The notes beneath the pieces are model-generated. The model searched no databases, was not told the origin of the DNA, and was given only the letters and a program-made list of their open reading frames with translations. Position numbers and translations under genes: made by a program. From Escherichia coli (lineage in GTDB: Bacteria; Pseudomonadota; Gammaproteobacteria; Enterobacterales; Enterobacteriaceae): DNA of 64,000 nucleotides. Within the stretch, counting starts at the first letter, position 1. Each line of letters begins with the position of its first letter. Shown one piece after another: positions 22,133 through 32,675 of the stretch. The DNA is taken from the NCBI RefSeq assembly GCF_003334305.1, contig NZ_QOWS01000012.1; one strand, given 5' to 3'.

Positions 22133-24028
<1,896 letters not shown>

Positions 24029-24072: not shown

Positions 24073-24942
24073 TTATTTTATTGGGCACAGTTTGTTACGA
24101 TCTGGAAATAGTGTTGCCAGCGAACCAGCCAGAGTTTTCCAGTCCGTAGCCATTTTTTCTGCTTGTGCAGTTGTTATTACTGCACCTTGTTGTTTAATAA
24201 GCTCATCCTCCACTCTGGTATAGTGAATAATGGTAAAATCCGTAGAGGACCATTTATCCTTAGAGAACATCTTCGTCATCGCATGAATGTTTGCTTGCCC
24301 GTCATCGATAAAAACAATCGCGTCATATTTGTTCCCCATTTTATCCAGCATATAATCGAGAATTACGCCTTTATCTTGCCCGGAAGAAAAAAATACCCCC
24401 TGGCTGTACAGCCATGACCGTTTGAGTTTCCCTTTTTCAAAGGGTGGCAAAGTATCCTCTTTCTTCCTGAGTGCGGAAGACGAAAAATCAATGCCGTTTC
24501 GCTTTAATTCCCGCAATGTCGGAAAGAGAGTATCCGGTGCACGGGATGTCAGAGCAAAAGCGGTATGCTTTTGTTGCCACTGTTTTAACATTGTCGGTAA
24601 CTGTGGCTCGGTAAGCTGCATAGGGCTAAGTTCGTAAAGCATACTGATTGTATTTTCATACAGGCAGGGAACTTTTTGCGAGTCATCCGGCTTTAAGGGC
24701 AATTTATCGGTTTACCATTGATACCAGATATCACCGCCAATGCGTGTGCCACTCGTTAATAACGTATTATCAATGTCAAAAACCAATAATATCTTATCGG
24801 ATGGATAGAGAGTTTCCTTTTCGGTGATAATTTTACTGACCGCACTATATTCGCCAGTAACTATATTTTTTACCTGTGCGTAAGATAAAGCTGGCAGAGC
24901 AGAGAGTATCATCCAGAGAATGATTTTAAATTTATTATTCAT
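24073..24942 (-). pseudogene. Secreted HAD-like phosphatase (DxDxT motif), interrupted by an in-frame TAA
   Basis: The 76-aa ORF (24712-24942) has a signal peptide and the FDIDNTLL motif. It ends at TAA (24712-24714), and the same frame continues directly into the 209-aa ORF (..YQW*TDKLPLKPDD..). Confidence 0.7.
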
Positions 24943-24955
24943 TTTTTATTCCAGA

Positions 24956-25690
24956 TTAGAAAGTATAAGTCAGACCCCAGCGCCAGCGGATTTGGCGATT
25001 ACTTGATGTTTTATCCACACCTTTATAATCCGCAATACTCATATAGGGTATCCACGATCCCATTTTGTACCCTACTTTAAATGATGCGGTATAGTTTTTA
25101 TGGCCATCATTCCAGGTTAAATAACCATTATTGTAATAGACCAGGTTTAACTGATATTGGAAGTTGGTTTTTTGTGGTCGATAGTCGATCCACACATCGT
25201 AACGGCGGTTATTACGATCATCGTTGCCATAACCTTTGGATTTATCGGTAGCTTTATCCATGTCATAACGAAAACGACCCGAAACTTTCCATTCTTTGCT
25301 GAAATCATAACCCGCAGAAAGACCATATTCGTAAGTTGACCAATATTGCGTGGTATCAAGCCAGAACATGGGTTCTAACCAGAATTTTTTGTCATCCAGC
25401 GGCTTAAAGCGGTAAACAACAGATAATCCTGTTCCGTTATTGCCAAATTGTGAGGGGTCCCACTTATCTTTATCACCTTCATCGGTGTTATAGCGTAATT
25501 CTCCCATCAAACCGATACCATTACTAAAAAATGTACCAAATTCAACGCGGTCCGCGTGGGTGCGAGTATCATCAAGATACTCATGACGATAATCAATAAA
25601 TCCATGCGGCTGTTCTGCACAGACTAGTGTAGGTGACAGGCAGGATAACATTGTTATTCCTGCAAGTGATATTTTAAGATAAGAATTCAT
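24956..25690 (-). CDS. KdgM/NanC-family outer membrane oligosaccharide porin
   Basis: 244 aa with a signal peptide. It shows an alternating beta-strand pattern, the GFIDYRHEY start typical of the KdgM family, and a C-terminal ...WGLTYTF ending in aromatic Phe. Confidence 0.7.
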   Translation of the reverse strand: MNSYLKISLAGITMLSCLSPTLVCAEQPHGFIDYRHEYLDDTRTHADRVEFGTFFSNGIGLMGELRYNTDEGDKDKWDPSQFGNNGTGLSVVYRFKPLDDKKFWLEPMFWLDTTQYWSTYEYGLSAGYDFSKEWKVSGRFRYDMDKATDKSKGYGNDDRNNRRYDVWIDYRPQKTNFQYQLNLVYYNNGYLTWNDGHKNYTASFKVGYKMGSWIPYMSIADYKGVDKTSSNRQIRWRWGLTYTF

Positions 25691-25785
25691 AATATTCCCT
25701 TTCAGAATAAAATATATTTTTGGTGATCGAATACACCATCTGATGATTCCAGGTATTAGAATGTTTTTTTATCTATAGTTTGACT

Positions 25786-26910
25786 TTAAATTTTAAGTTT
25801 GTTTTCCTTATCAATGAATAGATAAAATTTCGTCTGTTGATGGGGCTGGAAATTATTATCAGATACAAATATTAACGATGTATGCCCATCAATCAGAGGA
25901 CCGAAGGTTACCCCTTCAATACAATCCGCAGAGGAAGTGTAATCAGCAAAATCAATTAATAATTTTTTACTGACGGGTTGTAACGTGGATTTATTGGACC
26001 AATCTTGCAGACTGTCAATATCCTTGATATCGCTGGCAGCAGTTAAATCGACCATATAAACTCTGACAGAGTAATCCCAGTCATTGAACCCAGCACTGAC
26101 GTTTCTGCCGGAACGTTCGATGACCAACAATTGGTGATCATTCAGCGCCAGGACCTCGGATACGCCATTATCATTAATACCGAACTTACTCACTTGCGGA
26201 ACAGGATCAGTAATATAGAGATATTCATGCAATTGCTTTGAAGGTCGACCGTCTGCATCTATAGAAAATTGCAGTAAGCGTGATGTACCTGAATTTATTG
26301 GACTTGCAATAGGCCCATCCTGTTTAAGGCTGCTTTCAACGGCGATAAAAAGTGATTTTCCATCTGGTGTAACTGTCAGGCCCTCCCAGGCGTTGCCGCT
26401 GCGAATACCATTGCTGCTCTCTTTGTCAGAACTAATATTAAATCGAGCAGGAAATAAAGACGTAAAATCTTTCTCCATTACGCCATCGAGAGTGCTCAGA
26501 CGCAGTGGAGCACCTAACTCCGAACTCCATAGTAATGACTTACCATTGTGTGTCAGGGCCAGACCTTCGGCATCCACCGTATTGGTCACGAAAGGCTGCT
26601 GTTTTGCATCAAGCAGTGGACGCTGGTTGAGAAAATTCACTTGCTCAATGCCCCTGGATGATACCTGTATTTTTAGTGTATAAAGACTGGCATCTCCTTC
26701 TTTATTATTGTTTCTGCTATCGTTAATAGCATAGAAAATATTTTTTTTTGCATCAAATGTGATGGCTGATAGCCCCGCGATTGTAACATTGTTCTGTTTT
26801 TCTCCCGTCCGGAAGTTGAACTCACCAGCATAATGAAGAAAACTGTTTGCCTGCGCTGTTGTGCATAACAGCGGTAATGCCAGAAAAATAGCGGCATGTC
26901 TTATTTTCAT
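25786..26910 (-). CDS. Secreted phytase-like / esterase-like beta-propeller protein
   Basis: 374 aa with a signal peptide (..TAQA/NS). It has repeated GLS/EGL.. blades and a D/N-rich sequence resembling the phytase-like esterase domain family. The assignment rests on recollection of that family only. Confidence 0.5.
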   Translation of the reverse strand: MKIRHAAIFLALPLLCTTAQANSFLHYAGEFNFRTGEKQNNVTIAGLSAITFDAKKNIFYAINDSRNNNKEGDASLYTLKIQVSSRGIEQVNFLNQRPLLDAKQQPFVTNTVDAEGLALTHNGKSLLWSSELGAPLRLSTLDGVMEKDFTSLFPARFNISSDKESSNGIRSGNAWEGLTVTPDGKSLFIAVESSLKQDGPIASPINSGTSRLLQFSIDADGRPSKQLHEYLYITDPVPQVSKFGINDNGVSEVLALNDHQLLVIERSGRNVSAGFNDWDYSVRVYMVDLTAASDIKDIDSLQDWSNKSTLQPVSKKLLIDFADYTSSADCIEGVTFGPLIDGHTSLIFVSDNNFQPHQQTKFYLFIDKENKLKI

Positions 26911-26939: not shown

Positions 26940-27854
26940 TTAGTCGTGTTGTGAAAGAAAAAGATTAACTTCCGATGGTGTCGCCAGATGACCTCTGGCA
27001 CCTAATGCAGTAATATTTATTGCTGCAGTGGCAGAAGCAAATTTTAGTGCTTCAATTAAGGGCATGTTTTTTATTAAGCTATAAACAAATGCACCATTAA
27101 AAGTATCTCCAGCGCCAGTGGTATCAATAATGGGAATTGTATAGCTACCTATTTTTACTTGCTCATTGCCTTTGACTGCAATTACTCCCCTAACATCCAG
27201 CGTAACCACGACAGCCTCAAGTTGATACTCGTCTTGTATATCATGCAGAAGTGTAAAATCTGGCTCTGCTGCATAGCCACGAATAAAACCGTCATAATTA
27301 AATATCGCAATATCAGCAAGGTGTAAAATTCTGGCAAGGTGTTCAGGTGTTGCAATGATATGAGGCTCAATATCAACGACAACTTTTGTCATCTGGCTAC
27401 GGGAATATTCGGCCAGCATACGAAATTTCTCGATATCTGCTGGCATCGTATAATAATAACGGCTTTGCGCAATTGCCTGCAGGGCTTTTTCTTTATCCCA
27501 CTCATGATCACTACCAGGCGAGTAAACCAACGTTTTTTCACCTAATTCATCAATAAAGATAATCGCGGTATTGGCAATCAATTCCGGAATTACCTGAACG
27601 AAATCACAATTTACATGATATTTTTTAAATCCATCAAGAATGATCGAGGCTGAATGATCATTGCCCACACATGAAACAGATACCACATTGAGACCCAGTT
27701 GTCCCATCGCACAGGCACTGTTGGCGACTGTGCCGCCAGCTTGTTCACCCAGACGTGTCCCGACCACTTTACCGCCACGAGTGGGGAGTGACGGGATAGA
27801 TAAAAAAATATCTATATTTCCACTGCCTAAAGCGGCGACATCAAATTTCTTCAT
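26940..27854 (-). CDS. PfkB-family carbohydrate kinase
   Basis: 304 aa from MKKFDVAALGSGNIDIF.. preceded by the RBS gggaga. The C-terminus carries the DTTGAGDTFNGAF signature. The upstream extension to 27908 would overlap the SIS gene and is rejected. Confidence 0.85.
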   Translation of the reverse strand: MKKFDVAALGSGNIDIFLSIPSLPTRGGKVVGTRLGEQAGGTVANSACAMGQLGLNVVSVSCVGNDHSASIILDGFKKYHVNCDFVQVIPELIANTAIIFIDELGEKTLVYSPGSDHEWDKEKALQAIAQSRYYYTMPADIEKFRMLAEYSRSQMTKVVVDIEPHIIATPEHLARILHLADIAIFNYDGFIRGYAAEPDFTLLHDIQDEYQLEAVVVTLDVRGVIAVKGNEQVKIGSYTIPIIDTTGAGDTFNGAFVYSLIKNMPLIEALKFASATAAINITALGARGHLATPSEVNLFLSQHD

Positions 27855-27858
27855 AGTC

Positions 27859-28857
27859 TTATTTCTCCCTATGGCTAACGCGTTGCCCGCCTGCGTCGAC
27901 ATAATCACAACTTAAATGCCAGCACATTTCATATAACCACTGCATGACCAGAAATAAATTGTTGGACTCACTGGCATCAGGTATAAAACTGATTAATTCT
28001 GCTGTCGCTCCCTGTTCAACAATTGCTTTTTGGGTTGCAATGTAAAATGGGTACTCGCGGGATGTAGCTGGCAGTAAAAAATAATGCTGACCGACACCAG
28101 CCTGATGTAAGCGTAATGAATGATAAAATTCTTCCAGTGGAAAGGCTGTCGCACGAATCTGTGGGCCGCAAGAAAGTAAATTGCTCCCCGATATTGCTAG
28201 TCCCCAACTTAAGCCACTCCCCAGAAACGTTATCTCTTTTTGTTGGTAAAAATGGCGCTTCTTTTGCTGCCAGTGCTGATTAATCTGGCTAAATTTCCCT
28301 TCTAAATCCTCTTCAATTTGCAGTGGTGTTAAGCCTGGACATAAGTTTTGCGCTAAGCGCAGGAGGGTATAAAGTGTGACGCTACTACTTTGCGTTGGAA
28401 TACCCTGCTTATTCGCCCATGTATAGAGCATGTTTTCTGTTATTGCGCAAAATGGTGTTCCAGGGCAATTCGTCACACCCAGCACTTGCGCGTTTGAGCA
28501 TACTGCGTGGCTAAGGGCGTCAACGGTCAGTGATGGTCTGCCACTTGCGCTGAGAATAATGATCAACGTTTCTTTCTGATAACGGGTTAAATCAGTCTGA
28601 AGAAAATCCCACGTTTGCAATGCGGAACAAAACAGATGTGTGTATTTCCCCAGCCAGGCGGCGGCACATAGTGCCACCGTCCAGGAGTCGCCCGATCCCA
28701 CTATACAGACGCGTTCAACAGCACGTTTATCGAGCTGAACAGATGAAAAACATTCACCCCAGATAGCTGCCAAATGGCGTAGCGCTGCCGCCGTTGCATT
28801 TATTTCCTCACGAGTTTGCGCTAATGGCATAACAGGAGCACGGGCTGGCATGTTCAT
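27859..28857 (-). CDS. Double SIS-domain sugar-phosphate isomerase/deglycase-like protein
   Basis: 332 aa with two SIS-like segments (CIVGSGDSWTVA and TFLGSGLSWGLA). Its ATG overlaps the ARH gene stop by 1 nt (TAATG). Confidence 0.75.
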   Translation of the reverse strand: MNMPARAPVMPLAQTREEINATAAALRHLAAIWGECFSSVQLDKRAVERVCIVGSGDSWTVALCAAAWLGKYTHLFCSALQTWDFLQTDLTRYQKETLIIILSASGRPSLTVDALSHAVCSNAQVLGVTNCPGTPFCAITENMLYTWANKQGIPTQSSSVTLYTLLRLAQNLCPGLTPLQIEEDLEGKFSQINQHWQQKKRHFYQQKEITFLGSGLSWGLAISGSNLLSCGPQIRATAFPLEEFYHSLRLHQAGVGQHYFLLPATSREYPFYIATQKAIVEQGATAELISFIPDASESNNLFLVMQWLYEMCWHLSCDYVDAGGQRVSHREK

Positions 28858-29933
28858 TATTTCTCCTGTGCCTGTACTGCAAGCAATGTCAGACCCGATG
28901 CGATCGCTTCAACATCGAAATCTTTATTATTTACGGCGCGGAAAAAGGCATATTTATCTTCAGGGAGCGCATCAAAACCGCGCCATGCCCCTGCAATTGC
29001 GCCTGCCATCGTAGCGATGCTATCGGTGTCATTGCCAATATTGGCGCAGGCATGGATGGTTTCCCAGGGTTCTCCTTTGCAGTACAGCAATAGACCGATT
29101 GCCGCAGGAATGGATTCATGGGCGGCAACAGAGTTACCAACCAAACCTTCCATTTCTCGCAGACAAGACTCCAGATCATTGGCACGTCTGGCGATGTCCG
29201 CTGCAAGTTGGATGCGCATGGCGATAGATGGCCCTGCTACACATCGTGCATATTGTTTGGCCAGGCGTTCGCCGTAATTCGCTCCCCAGATTGCGGCATC
29301 CAGTAATGATGTGAGCGAGGCTTCTGGTAACATAGCCTGCGATGTCGCTGCAGCGATGGCGCAAGCGCTGGCAATCGCAATATTGGTGTCATGTGAAGGT
29401 AGGCAAGTTATTAACGCCAGGCGACACGCTTTTTCTTTCTTGCCAGGCCAGATCAATCCTGCCGGGGCTACACGCATTCCTGCGCCATTCGTGGTGCCGA
29501 CATTGGGGGCCTGACGAGAAGATGTTCCAATACGCCCAATGGTGTTTGTTGGTCTACCTTCTTTTAGTGCCTTGACGATTTGTTCTGTTGTGGGGCCTTT
29601 ATAATTTGCGTAGGGCTGCATATCGGCCCAACGCAGAAGACAAGCTAACCAGTCATTATTGGTGAAGTTATCAAATCCAGCCTCAATTAACCCTTCTGAA
29701 AACACATACATTTGGCTGGAATCGTCGGTGATAAGTCCTGCAACACCATTTAATGAGCCAGCAAAGGTATCGGCAGGAGGAGAAACAAAGGCATTTAAAA
29801 AACCTCCCCATTGAGTTTTTATTTCATCAATGCTGTAGAGTTCAGTCGCTGCGCCTAATGCATCGCCCATACCTGCGCAGGCTAAAGAACCTAATATTTT
29901 GTTATAAATTACGGCTTGTTCTATTTTGTTCAC
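28857..29933 (-). CDS. ADP-ribosylglycohydrolase (ARH/DraG) family hydrolase
   Basis: 358 aa. It has the N-terminal GMGDALGAATE motif, an internal DDSSQ, and the C-terminal GNDTDSIATMAGAIAGAW metal-site motif typical of the family. Confidence 0.8.
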   Translation of the reverse strand: MNKIEQAVIYNKILGSLACAGMGDALGAATELYSIDEIKTQWGGFLNAFVSPPADTFAGSLNGVAGLITDDSSQMYVFSEGLIEAGFDNFTNNDWLACLLRWADMQPYANYKGPTTEQIVKALKEGRPTNTIGRIGTSSRQAPNVGTTNGAGMRVAPAGLIWPGKKEKACRLALITCLPSHDTNIAIASACAIAAATSQAMLPEASLTSLLDAAIWGANYGERLAKQYARCVAGPSIAMRIQLAADIARRANDLESCLREMEGLVGNSVAAHESIPAAIGLLLYCKGEPWETIHACANIGNDTDSIATMAGAIAGAWRGFDALPEDKYAFFRAVNNKDFDVEAIASGLTLLAVQAQEK

Positions 29934-29946
29934 AATATTCTCTCTG

Positions 29947-30699
29947 TTACACGCTAAAACTGTCTTTTGTAATTCGTGCTTTGTAGGAGTACCGACTTGC
30001 GGGATAAACCATCTCTACATACTCCATTGGTTTACGTTCCACGGATAACGTGACGCGGGTACAACTTAATACGACGTCATCGGCAGTCAGTTCCAGTAAT
30101 TGACGCTCAAGGGGCGAGGGAAGCCGGGCAGAGATAATCTCCGTTGCTTCTAAAGGTTTAATAGCGAGTTTTTCTTCCAGTAAAATATAGAGCGAACCCG
30201 TCGCCAGCAGCTCTTCCAGAGTTATTTCTTGTCCGTCATTTAACGCAAGCCATGATGTCTGAATACCCAGCGGCGTACTTCCCATATAGCGAATGCGTTT
30301 TATACAGAAAACGGTATGGACATGGATATCAAGTTCGAGATTTTTTCTGATAATATCACTGAGAGGAATATAACCTATTTCAAGAATATTCTGTGCCGGT
30401 ACGCCACCACGAGCCTTAATGTCATCAGTAAAACTATGTAATAAATGATTTTCCCGACTGCGAGCCGGTAATGTAAATGTTCCTTGCCCGTGGACACTAT
30501 GCAGGTATCCGCGTTGTTTCAAACTTTCTATTGCTTTCCGAATTGTTGTTCTGCTGCTTAAAAAATGTTCAGCCAGTTCTCTTTCTGTTGGTATAGCTTT
30601 GCCTTCTTTCCATTCACCGTTATCAATTTTTTTCTTTATTTCATCAAAAATTTCACGATGCTTTAGCTGACCTTTACTGGCTTTATAAATTCTTATCAT
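29947..30699 (-). CDS. GntR-family transcriptional regulator, HutC subfamily (wHTH plus UTRA effector domain)
   Basis: 250 aa. The N-terminus carries the PTERELAEHF..SRTTIRKAIESLKQRGYL..HGQGTF HTH, and the C-terminal ~150 aa look UTRA-like. It lies 13 nt upstream of the ARH gene. Confidence 0.85.
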   Translation of the reverse strand: MIRIYKASKGQLKHREIFDEIKKKIDNGEWKEGKAIPTERELAEHFLSSRTTIRKAIESLKQRGYLHSVHGQGTFTLPARSRENHLLHSFTDDIKARGGVPAQNILEIGYIPLSDIIRKNLELDIHVHTVFCIKRIRYMGSTPLGIQTSWLALNDGQEITLEELLATGSLYILLEEKLAIKPLEATEIISARLPSPLERQLLELTADDVVLSCTRVTLSVERKPMEYVEMVYPASRYSYKARITKDSFSV

Positions 30700-30718
30700 G
30701 ACAAAGCCTCATTTCAAG

Positions 30719-30730
30719 TGGTTGATACCA
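30719..30730. promoter_or_regulatory. Candidate HutC-type operator, TGGTTGATACCA
   Basis: Inverted repeat TGGT-N4-ACCA, located 20 nt upstream of the regulator ATG (30699) in the divergent intergenic region. Confidence 0.4.
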
Positions 30731-30881
30731 ACTTTACATTCTTTTATTTTTATTGCGCAGTATGCTTATTTGTTATCTGTGACATAAAACAGGAAAAACC
30801 ACATTTATTAATAAATATCATGCGGTTAAGTGAAATTGGTTTTTATGTGATGCTGCTCAATATTAACTCAGTGGTTTGTTG

Positions 30882-30893
30882 TGGTATCTACCA
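30882..30893. promoter_or_regulatory. Candidate HutC-type operator, TGGTATCTACCA
   Basis: Perfect inverted repeat TGGTA-TC-TACCA, about 90 nt upstream of the transporter ATG. It resembles the DasR/NagR-type TGGT.TA.ACCA operator cores of HutC regulators. Confidence 0.45.
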
Positions 30894-30985
30894 ATGCATT
30901 TATTCTCAATCGTAAAGTTATGTGCTGAATGAGTTCCGATACATTTGTTTTTAATATAATTTCATGTGATTAATGAGTGCTGTGT

Positions 30986-32317
30986 ATGAAACTGACAATA
31001 AATGAAAAGATAGGTTTTGGTGCCGGTGATATGGCCATTGCGATAGTAATGATGTCTTTAGCCATGATCATCACTTATTTTTACACGGATGTATTTGGTC
31101 TGAAACCCGTCGACTTAGGTATTCTGTTATTTTCTGTACGTATTCTTGATGCTGTGATTGATCCAGTTGTGGGAACAATGACAGACATAACGAATACACG
31201 TTGGGGAAAATATCGGCCATGGTTGCTTTTTATGTCAATACCGTTTGGGATAAGCATTTGGTTGATGTTCACCACACCTGATACCGATTATTCAGTTAAG
31301 CTTTTATGGGCCTGGGCTACCTATGTGTTACTTACCTTGACCTATACGTTAATCGCTATTCCTTATGTTTCATTAATCAGCGTTATCACGGATGATCCAC
31401 AAGAGAGATTGAGCGCCAATGGTTATCGTTTTGTTATGACAAAAATTGCCATGTTCGCCGTAACAATTATTGTTCCTTTATCTGCAATGTATCTTGGGAA
31501 GAATAACGTACAACTGGGTTATCAAATAGCAATGGGGACAATGGGTATTCTGGCAACGTGTTTATGCCTGTATTGTTTTTTTAGCGTGAGAGAGCGCATC
31601 TACCATCCAAAACCCAGTCTCGGTATGGCCGCGCAGTTTCGGTTACTGATCAAAAATGATCAATGGCTCATTTTGGGCGCTGTAATTGCGATCATTATGT
31701 TTGGCGGGATTATTCGTAACTCTGTCGCTGCATATTATGCAAAATATTACCTGAGTGGTGGGGATGCTTTAATTTCACCGTTTTTAACTTCAGGCGTGAT
31801 CGCCTCAGTTCTGGCTATGATCGCTTGCACCTGGCTTACTCGTCTCTATGACAAAATAAAAATATTTCGTTATACCCAATTACTGGCGTTCGTGGTGGGT
31901 GGTGCGATGTATTTCGTGCAACCAAATTCTATAGTGCTAGCTTTTACATTTTATATTGTGGTGACTTTCCTGACGGATATCCAGCTTCCCATTTATTGGG
32001 CATCCATTGCTGAGTCCGTGGATTACGGTGAAATGAAAACGGGGCAACGTGTTTCTGGCCTGGCATTTGGCGGGATTCTCTTTTTCCAAAAGTTCGGTAT
32101 GGGGCTGGCAGGGGGCTTTATCGGAATCGCTTTAGCCTATCTGGATTATCAACCAGGCGTAGAACAAACACCACAGGCGCTGTGGGGGATCTGCCTGTTA
32201 ATGACGATCATTCCCGCGATACTTAACCTGCTTACCGGACTCATCATGAGATTTTATCTGATTAATAATGAATATTACGAACAGATAAAAGCACGGTTAC
32301 AAACGGCGGAAGAGTGA
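30986..32317 (+). CDS. GPH-family (glycoside-pentoside-hexuronide:cation) symporter
   Basis: 443 aa from MKLTINEKIGFGAGDMA with about 12 TM segments. It carries the RWGKYRPWLL loop signature of MelB/YicJ-type carriers. The GTG at 30977 is an alternative start. Confidence 0.85.
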   Translation: MKLTINEKIGFGAGDMAIAIVMMSLAMIITYFYTDVFGLKPVDLGILLFSVRILDAVIDPVVGTMTDITNTRWGKYRPWLLFMSIPFGISIWLMFTTPDTDYSVKLLWAWATYVLLTLTYTLIAIPYVSLISVITDDPQERLSANGYRFVMTKIAMFAVTIIVPLSAMYLGKNNVQLGYQIAMGTMGILATCLCLYCFFSVRERIYHPKPSLGMAAQFRLLIKNDQWLILGAVIAIIMFGGIIRNSVAAYYAKYYLSGGDALISPFLTSGVIASVLAMIACTWLTRLYDKIKIFRYTQLLAFVVGGAMYFVQPNSIVLAFTFYIVVTFLTDIQLPIYWASIAESVDYGEMKTGQRVSGLAFGGILFFQKFGMGLAGGFIGIALAYLDYQPGVEQTPQALWGICLLMTIIPAILNLLTGLIMRFYLINNEYYEQIKARLQTAEE

Positions 32318-32360: not shown

Positions 32361-32675
32361 TTAAATCCCTGGCTGCAGAATACGAATATTCATCTCCAGC
32401 ACGTCGCCTTTTACGGCTTCGCTGTACGCCTTCATGTGCGGGGTTTGCAGATGCGCTTCAAGATGCGCGATGCTTTCCCACTGCTCAATCATCACGATAG
32501 AATCCGGTGCCATAGACTGGAAACTCACGCCAGCAGCGCAATCCACCATTGGCGCATAGCCGTGGCAACCTTCTTCTTTCAGTACGGTTGGAACGATTTT
32601 AGCAAACTGATCCAATACCGCCTGACGGTGATGTTGACCAGGACGAGTACGGATTTCTGCGATTACGGTAAGCAT
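32361..32675 (-). CDS. ygiN: Quinol monooxygenase (ABM domain)
   Basis: 104 aa matching YgiN. It lies downstream of mdaB on the same strand. Confidence 0.92.
   Translation of the reverse strand: MLTVIAEIRTRPGQHHRQAVLDQFAKIVPTVLKEEGCHGYAPMVDCAAGVSFQSMAPDSIVMIEQWESIAHLEAHLQTPHMKAYSEAVKGDVLEMNIRILQPGI

Follow-up and report, generated by a model that had tools for sequence, protein, structure and literature searches.

Two copies of the palindrome TGGT-N4-ACCA, one before each of two divergent transcription units of an accessory metabolic island of Escherichia coli, are very probably operators bound by the HutC-type GntR repressor that the island itself encodes (29947-30699). Positions throughout are those of the window, by which we mean the whole 64-kb stretch of DNA that was analysed. 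The earlier note had assigned the palindromes to this regulator, and comparative sequence analysis bears the assignment out in silico: the motif is present at all 14 orthologous loci, ranks first in an unbiased dyad search and accompanies the target promoters when gene order changes, and the regulator carries the residues with which NagR reads its bases.

A HutC-type regulator heads the operon of an accessory island

The island is accessory in E. coli and is inserted between parE (22136-24028) and ygiN (32361-32675); a 501-bp stretch around the spacer discussed below is present in 408 of 5426 complete E. coli genomes (about 7.5%). A seven-gene operon on the minus strand, with the regulator gene first, faces a symporter gene on the plus strand. 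Gaps between the operon genes are -1 to 29 bp, with a single exception of 95 bp. The divergent arrangement of a HutC-type regulator operon and a GPH symporter, as described in the earlier note, agrees with the GntR and UTRA domains and the MFS_2/GPH gene that we found. The genes are as follows, named by domain family where no other basis is given.

30986..32317, plus strand: GPH-family (MFS_2) cation symporter, the divergent target gene
29947..30699, minus strand: HutC-subfamily GntR regulator (250 aa), first operon gene, with GntR and UTRA domains; presumed binder of O1 and O2
28857..29933, minus strand: ADP-ribosylglycohydrolase-family enzyme
27859..28857, minus strand: SIS-domain protein, phosphosugar isomerase or deglycase-like
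26940..27854, minus strand: PfkB-family (ribokinase-like) carbohydrate kinase
25786..26910, minus strand: secreted "esterase-like activity of phytase" protein, with a signal peptide
24956..25690, minus strand: KdgM-family outer-membrane porin
24073..24942, minus strand: DUF2608 gene, last of the operon, with a stop at codon 77 in the window

Codon 77 of the DUF2608 gene (24712-24714) reads TAG rather than CAG, with A at 24714 where strain M8 has G. This premature stop is among only 4 differences between the window and M8 over 10.5 kb, which marks the gene here as a strain-specific pseudogene. The sole long intergenic gap of the operon, the 95 bp before kdgM (25691-25785), contains TGGTGATCGAATACACCA, a TGGT-N10-ACCA sequence with a 5-bp inverted repeat that could act as a hairpin or internal control element; the gap is much shorter in the loci L011 and L006. 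A position weight matrix (PWM) scan of the 64-kb window detected no additional operator in the island, the region before kdgM included, and its remaining matches were intragenic and scored below O1 and O2. A literature search for an ADP-ribosylglycohydrolase island with GntR, SIS, PfkB or phytase-like genes returned no relevant paper.

Two matched palindromes lie in the divergent spacer

The spacer (30700-30985; 286 bp) lies between the regulator ATG (30699, minus strand) and the symporter ATG annotated in RefSeq (30986). The earlier note had placed two palindromes in this AT-rich spacer, and their sequences and coordinates as well as the GC content of 31% are in agreement.

30719-30730, unstranded: candidate operator O1 (proximal), TGGTTGATACCA; 14-mer form GTGGTTGATACCAA at 30718-30731
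30882-30893, unstranded: candidate operator O2 (distal), TGGTATCTACCA; 14-mer form GTGGTATCTACCAA at 30881-30894

O1 lies 19-30 nt upstream of the regulator ATG, and O2 lies 93 nt upstream of the symporter ATG. Their likeness exceeds the 12-mer, the reverse complement of site 1 differing from site 2 by one base. Across the 64-kb window TGGTNNNNACCA (TGGTN4ACCA) has 5 matches against 0.75 expected, and the other 3 all fall within coding ORFs. From composition, the spacer should contain only 0.002 matches (Poisson P for two or more, 2e-6), and two matches arose in 0 of 200,000 spacer shuffles. A chance origin of the palindrome pair is therefore excluded.

The palindrome is conserved from Escherichia to Vibrio

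Both sites are present in all three spacer alleles found in E. coli, whose identities are 100%, 96.6% and 91.8%. Within the sites the alleles differ at a single N4 base of site 2, where the 91.8% allele has A in place of T; its O2 thereby reads TGGTATCAACCA, the exact reverse complement of O1. Beyond E. coli, we used a profile of 28 homologous regulators together with exact-protein look-ups, which yielded 14 orthologous loci whose regulators are 47-100% identical to that of the window. These loci come from Shigella, E. ruysiae, Enterobacter sp. BIGb0383, Leclercia sp. EMC7, Klebsiella sp. MISC125, Kosakonia oryzendophytica, Trabulsiella odontotermitis, Providencia, Vibrio europaeus, V. artabrorum and several metagenomic contigs.

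TGGT-N4-ACCA was found in the promoter spacers of the cluster at all 14 loci. Every enterobacterial locus has one site 24-34 nt before the regulator start, and all except Leclercia have a second site 189-203 nt before it. In 11 non-redundant sources the cluster spacers, ~4.9 kb in total, contain 26 exact matches, as compared with 8 in ~198 kb elsewhere. The PWM was built from exact-core matches and is circular as a test; the unbiased evidence is an enumeration of every 4-N(0-8)-4 dyad in 11 non-redundant upstream regions, in which TGGT-N4-ACCA was the top dyad, occurring in 11 of 11 regions, while the best dyad in shuffles reached 5-7. The comparative footprinting of orthologous spacers that the earlier note had proposed as a check thus favors the motif. 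The wider consensus of the site is aTTGGTAnnTACCAat. In an alignment of five spacers (regulators 67-100% identical) the O1 14-mer is invariant, and within O2 the TGGT and ACCA(AT) are invariant and the N4 varies. Judged from these comparisons, TGGT-N4-ACCA is the one conserved dyad of the regulon's promoter spacers in Enterobacterales and Vibrio.

Each palindrome stands at a set distance from a CRP-like site of its own

The five-way alignment reveals four conserved islands in a background of 70% identity, namely the site 1 14-mer, the TGGT/ACCA(AT) of site 2, and two TGTGA-N6-TCAnn CRP-like sites, each with an inverted TGGTTTTT block on its distal side. These elements, and the core promoter elements that we predict around them, are listed below.

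30778..30793, unstranded: CRP-like site 1, TGTGACATAAAACAGG; 7/10 consensus positions; centre 30785.5, 61 bp from the O1 centre
30846..30861, unstranded: CRP-like site 2, TGTGATGCTGCTCAAT; 8/10 consensus positions; centre 30853.5, 34 bp from the O2 centre
30731..30736, minus strand: putative -10 element TAAAGT of the operon promoter, abutting O1
30901..30906, plus strand: putative -10 element TATTCT of the symporter promoter
30879-30884, plus strand: possible -35 element TTGTGG of the symporter promoter, overlapping O2
30794..30801, unstranded: conserved block AAAAACCA, flanking CRP-like site 1 on its distal side; inverted counterpart of the block at 30837-30844
30837..30844, unstranded: conserved block TGGTTTTT, flanking CRP-like site 2 on its distal side

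By their match to the consensus the E. coli CRP-like sites are weak, and the TGTGA-N6-TCAA of site 2 is invariant in the five-way alignment. Over 12 arrangements the proximal operator stands 60-63 bp (mostly 61.0) from its CRP-like site, centre to centre, and the distal operator 33-34 bp from its own. At each of these offsets at least 7 of 10 CRP consensus positions are matched in 11 of the 12 arrangements, against a background of 1.5% of spacer positions. The distance between the operators drifts from 154 to 179 bp and tracks the CRP-to-CRP interval of 60-84 bp. As the offset from operator to CRP-like site is fixed on each side and the distance between the two operators drifts, the arrangement supports the assignment of one operator to each divergent promoter, as the earlier note had suggested.

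A reading in which O1 and O2 form one cooperative unit, with repressor dimers looping the 163-bp spacer and both sites needed for both promoters, draws on the presence of the pair in every divergent enterobacterial spacer at a similar distance (154-179 bp) and on the higher-order complexes on DNA described in the NagR study. However, the spacings of 154, 161-164, 167 and 177-179 bp keep no constant helical phase, which disfavors looping with a conserved phase, and their variation is confined to the interval between the CRP-like sites. Promoters with a single site also exist (the Leclercia regulator promoter and the Vibrio loci), and we consider looping of this kind unlikely.

Conserved hexamers are compatible with CRP centred at -61.5 (±2). 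Beside O1, the five closest spacers carry the TAnnnT hexamers TAAAGT, TAGAGT, TAGAGT, TAAGGT and TAACAT. An nAnnnT sequence abuts O1 in 7 of 10 non-redundant loci and TAnnnT begins 8 or 10 nt past the O2-type operator in 7 of 11, the -10 assignments themselves holding in just 4-7 of 10-11 loci. Both promoters appear to be CRP-dependent, and we infer that CRP-like sites 1 and 2 are class I activator sites for the operon and symporter promoters, respectively. Class II geometry (CRP at -41.5) would require -10 elements at places that lack TAnnnT (GCAATA and GGTATC/TATCTA), whereas class I geometry gives the conserved TAnnnT; we keep class II only as an alternative, in which O1 would be a downstream roadblock, as for the E. 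coli K-12 repressor FrlR, and O2 would overlap the -10 element. A generic promoter scan of the region did not call the proposed promoters, its matches there being at chance level. Simple scanners commonly miss activator-dependent promoters.

The same geometry bears on the direction of control. That the regulator acts at O1 and O2 as an activator or dual regulator would be in keeping with reports of dual HutC regulators (for example PMC6141813), and the promoter positions are predictions only. The operators nevertheless lie downstream of the CRP-like sites and within or next to the predicted core promoters, a placement typical of repressors such as FrlR, NagR and GgaR, and we regard an activating or dual role as improbable. 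Repression is thus the reading that position and the habit of the family point to.

Several further features of the spacer were noted. The AAAAACCA and TGGTTTTT blocks contain a TGGT half-site, are invariant in the five spacers (regulators 67-100% identical) and are absent from more distant loci; possible roles include an UP-like or alpha-CTD contact, bending, or service as auxiliary half-sites. A GTGGT at 30871-30875 beside O2 was considered as an extra half-site and dropped, as it is not conserved outside Escherichia. In the predicted symporter leader lies a direct repeat, TAAAGTTATGTGCTGAATGAGT (30913-30934) and TAATTTCATGTGATTAATGAGT (30957-30978), whose copies are 77% identical and 44 bp apart. 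The second copy includes the Shine-Dalgarno region, and the repeat is not conserved beyond Escherichia.

The palindrome follows the regulon when gene order shifts

In Leclercia EMC7 and Klebsiella MISC125 the regulator gene lies apart from the catabolic genes. The ARH-SIS-PfkB-phytase operon of these strains is still separated from the GPH gene by a spacer with two sites, 162 and 154 bp apart, and the detached regulator has a site of its own, acquired or kept, 26-28 nt before its start. Klebsiella has an extra site, adjoining a perfect CRP consensus, before an adenosine deaminase-KdgM operon; in Vibrio, sites precede tsx and kdgM, and other species likewise have sites upstream of the tsx, kdgM and adenosine deaminase genes of the cluster. 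Because sites stay with the operon/symporter spacer, the detached regulator, tsx, kdgM and adenosine deaminase, the element follows the target promoters of the regulon. The regulator is the sole transcription factor common to all clusters.

On a metagenomic enterobacterial contig (L012, 6374-8756) the regulator, both operators and both CRP-like sites lie beside a GPH symporter and tsx. No ARH-SIS-PfkB operon is present nearby, so the switch can persist with transport genes alone.

The regulator carries the residues that read TGGT in NagR

The regulator contains a GntR winged helix-turn-helix (PF00392, residues 15-75, E 1.1e-17) and a UTRA effector-binding/dimerisation domain (PF07702, residues 97-237, E 5.8e-23), and on both domain criteria it belongs to the HutC subfamily of GntR. 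Its best NCBIfam and PDB relatives are HutC, PhnF, TreR, DasR and NagR, with no equivalog-level match in the NCBIfam comparison, and the closest solved structures are DasR (E 1.8e-25) and NagR/YvoA (E 7e-20). In the NagR-DNA structure Arg38 reads G-5, Arg48 reads G-4 and the wing residue Gly69 contacts G-7. By alignment, the regulator's R40, R50 and G71 correspond to NagR R38, R48 and G69; among the 28 homologues R40 is invariant and R50 nearly so.

The operator consensus of the HutC subfamily is GT-N4-AC (NyGT-N4-ACNy; Suvorova et al. 2015). O1 and O2 fit the GT-N4-AC palindrome. The preferred central TA (GT-M-TA-K-AC) is absent from the E. coli sites (GA, TC) and present in Kosakonia. In promoter location and orthologous conservation, too, the sites qualify as candidate HutC-type or dre-like operators. 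The regulator falls outside the DasR/NagR orthologous group, which controls the GlcNAc regulon, its predicted targets being the ARH, SIS, PfkB, phytase-like, KdgM and GPH genes.

The closest parallels are DasR of Streptomyces coelicolor and NagR/YvoA of Bacillus subtilis, which like the regulator are HutC-subfamily GntR proteins with a UTRA domain. Their dre operators share with O1 and O2 the core TGGT-N4-ACCA, and NagR and the regulator share (by alignment, in our case) the Arg, Arg and Gly for G-5, G-4 and G-7. The E. coli sites have G-7 in one half only (GTGGT...ACCAA); native dre sites are likewise imperfect palindromes, and the NagR study reported the same one-sided asymmetry. In contrast, the regulator is not an orthologue of DasR or NagR. 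Those proteins control GlcNAc/chitin genes, whereas the island has nucleoside-like ARH/SIS/PfkB content; the central four bases are TGAT/ATCT here and CTAG/ATAG in dre; and the host is a gamma-proteobacterium whose promoters are apparently CRP-dependent. By these comparisons, the system would work like DasR/NagR from outside their orthologous group.

Two E. coli K-12 regulators are also informative. FrlR is a HutC-type repressor that binds at or just after the CRP-activated frlABCD start and has a phosphorylated pathway intermediate as effector (bioRxiv 10.1101/2020.01.13.904318). The catabolic operon served by FrlR, like that of the regulator, encodes a PfkB kinase together with an enzyme of SIS type. 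FrlR reads GT-N6-AC (GTCATGTTAC; bioRxiv 10.1101/2020.01.13.904318) as opposed to TGGT-N4-ACCA, and the frlABCD promoter has CRP at -41.5 (class II) and a single operator, in contrast to two operators and CRP-like sites of putative class I here. The frlR gene is adjacent to its operon, whereas the regulator gene heads the operon in the island. The background given in the earlier note, that DasR, NagR and FrlR-type proteins read palindromes with a GT..AC or TGGT..ACCA core, holds exactly for DasR and NagR as regards TGGT..ACCA but not for FrlR.

GgaR (YegW) of yegTUV is a HutC-type single-target repressor with two nearby sites and ADP-glucose as its reported effector, and its target genes encode a transporter, a PfkB kinase and an enzyme of the ADP-ribosylglycohydrolase family, as in the island (PMC10819704). 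GgaR and the regulator are 25% identical, however, and the ARH enzymes 31%; yegTUV lacks SIS, phytase-like and porin genes; and the fbaB/yegT spacer has GGTAT repeats and no TGGT-N4-ACCA. We therefore rejected equivalence with GgaR/yegTUV, which is an analogue rather than an orthologue. In Klebsiella sp. MISC125 (L008, 10322-10333) an exact copy of TGGTATCAACCA, the E. coli O1 12-mer, lies inside the ADP-ribosylglycohydrolase gene and is missing from the E. coli gene. This copy either arose by chance or is an intragenic site comparable to the second site of GgaR, which lies within yegT.

Since E. coli has several HutC/GntR paralogues and the spacer contains further conserved blocks (TGGTTTTT/AAAAACCA and the CRP-like sites), one could suppose that another transcription factor, a GntR-family paralogue or a global regulator, binds the palindromes and that the regulator recognises some other spacer element. 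Against this, the motif and the regulator gene occur together at all loci from Vibrio to Escherichia, the detached regulator too having a copy directly upstream, and no other transcription factor is found in all clusters. The regulator has the residues that read TGGT in NagR, the two K-12 relatives have other targets (GT-N6-AC for FrlR, and for GgaR a spacer without the motif), and the remaining conserved blocks vanish in more distant loci. Taken together, these points make a different binder very improbable. Hardly any weight is left for chance matches, in view of the window count, the spacer shuffles and the unbiased dyad search, or for an RNA element (a leader hairpin or pairing of the inverted copies), which we rejected even though the minimum-energy fold of the spacer pairs both copies, because that fold is no better than shuffles (z = -1.17; 22 of 200 shuffles as stable), no Rfam match was found at E <= 1, the sites would belong to two separate transcripts running in opposite directions or would lie upstream of where these begin, and N4 changes break the O1-O2 pairing in several loci.

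A predicted switch for the island

Under the operator reading, a regulator dimer on O1 would cover the transcription start of the seven-gene operon, spanning about -6 to +6 if CRP is centred at -61.5, and its occupancy would bring about negative autoregulation together with control of the pathway. The earlier note had described site 1 in terms of autoregulation; the site does stand before the regulator gene, but that description is too narrow, as the whole seven-gene operon is predicted to be under site 1. A second dimer would bind O2 between the -35 and -10 elements of the symporter promoter, at about -33 to -22 in the same geometry. In addition, cAMP-CRP bound at sites centred near -61.5 would activate both promoters. 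A metabolite of the pathway, by analogy with NagR, DasR and FrlR probably the phosphorylated product of the PfkB kinase, would bind the UTRA domain and release the repressor, and the island would then be expressed only with its substrate present and glucose absent.

The regulon points to a nucleoside-like substrate

Orthologous clusters add genes for Tsx, a Bmp-type nucleoside ABC transporter, an UshA-like 5'-nucleotidase and adenosine deaminase. The nearest characterised PDB relatives of the glycohydrolase are ARH3 poly(ADP-ribose) glycohydrolases, and three island products have signal peptides. These observations suggest that an adenine-riboside-like compound is trimmed in the periplasm, imported and then cleaved; the substrate of the island is probably a nucleoside or riboside, and probably adenine riboside-like. 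Across species, the operators precede genes for Tsx/KdgM porins, a GPH or Bmp-type nucleoside transporter, a secreted phytase-like esterase, an UshA-like 5'-nucleotidase and adenosine deaminase, as well as the cytoplasmic trio of ARH3-like glycohydrolase, SIS enzyme and ribokinase-like kinase. We suggest, tentatively and as a possibility more than an expectation, that the two operators belong to a compact, hitherto undescribed regulon by which the cell scavenges a compound of the adenine-riboside type. Speculatively, and going by domain families, the compound might be O-ribosyl-adenosine or related fragments from poly- or mono-ADP-ribosylated host or microbial material. If the regulon is of this kind, the operators and repressor would offer a direct handle on the identity of the nutrient through a reporter or an EMSA release assay.

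The pair by itself is a textbook repressor-operator arrangement and leaves concepts unchanged. What is new is the predicted dre-like operator pair of an uncharacterised HutC repressor, and its value lies in defining how an accessory metabolic island, itself uncharacterised, is controlled in cis, an island that has counterparts in Enterobacter, Klebsiella, Leclercia, Kosakonia, Trabulsiella, Providencia and Vibrio. Across these species the conserved operator sets the limits of the regulon and thereby points to the nucleoside-like substrate. It would also make an inducer screen simple, by derepression of a symporter-promoter reporter or by release of the repressor from a 14-bp site, and the finding may in this way open a route into a catabolic island that is so far undescribed.
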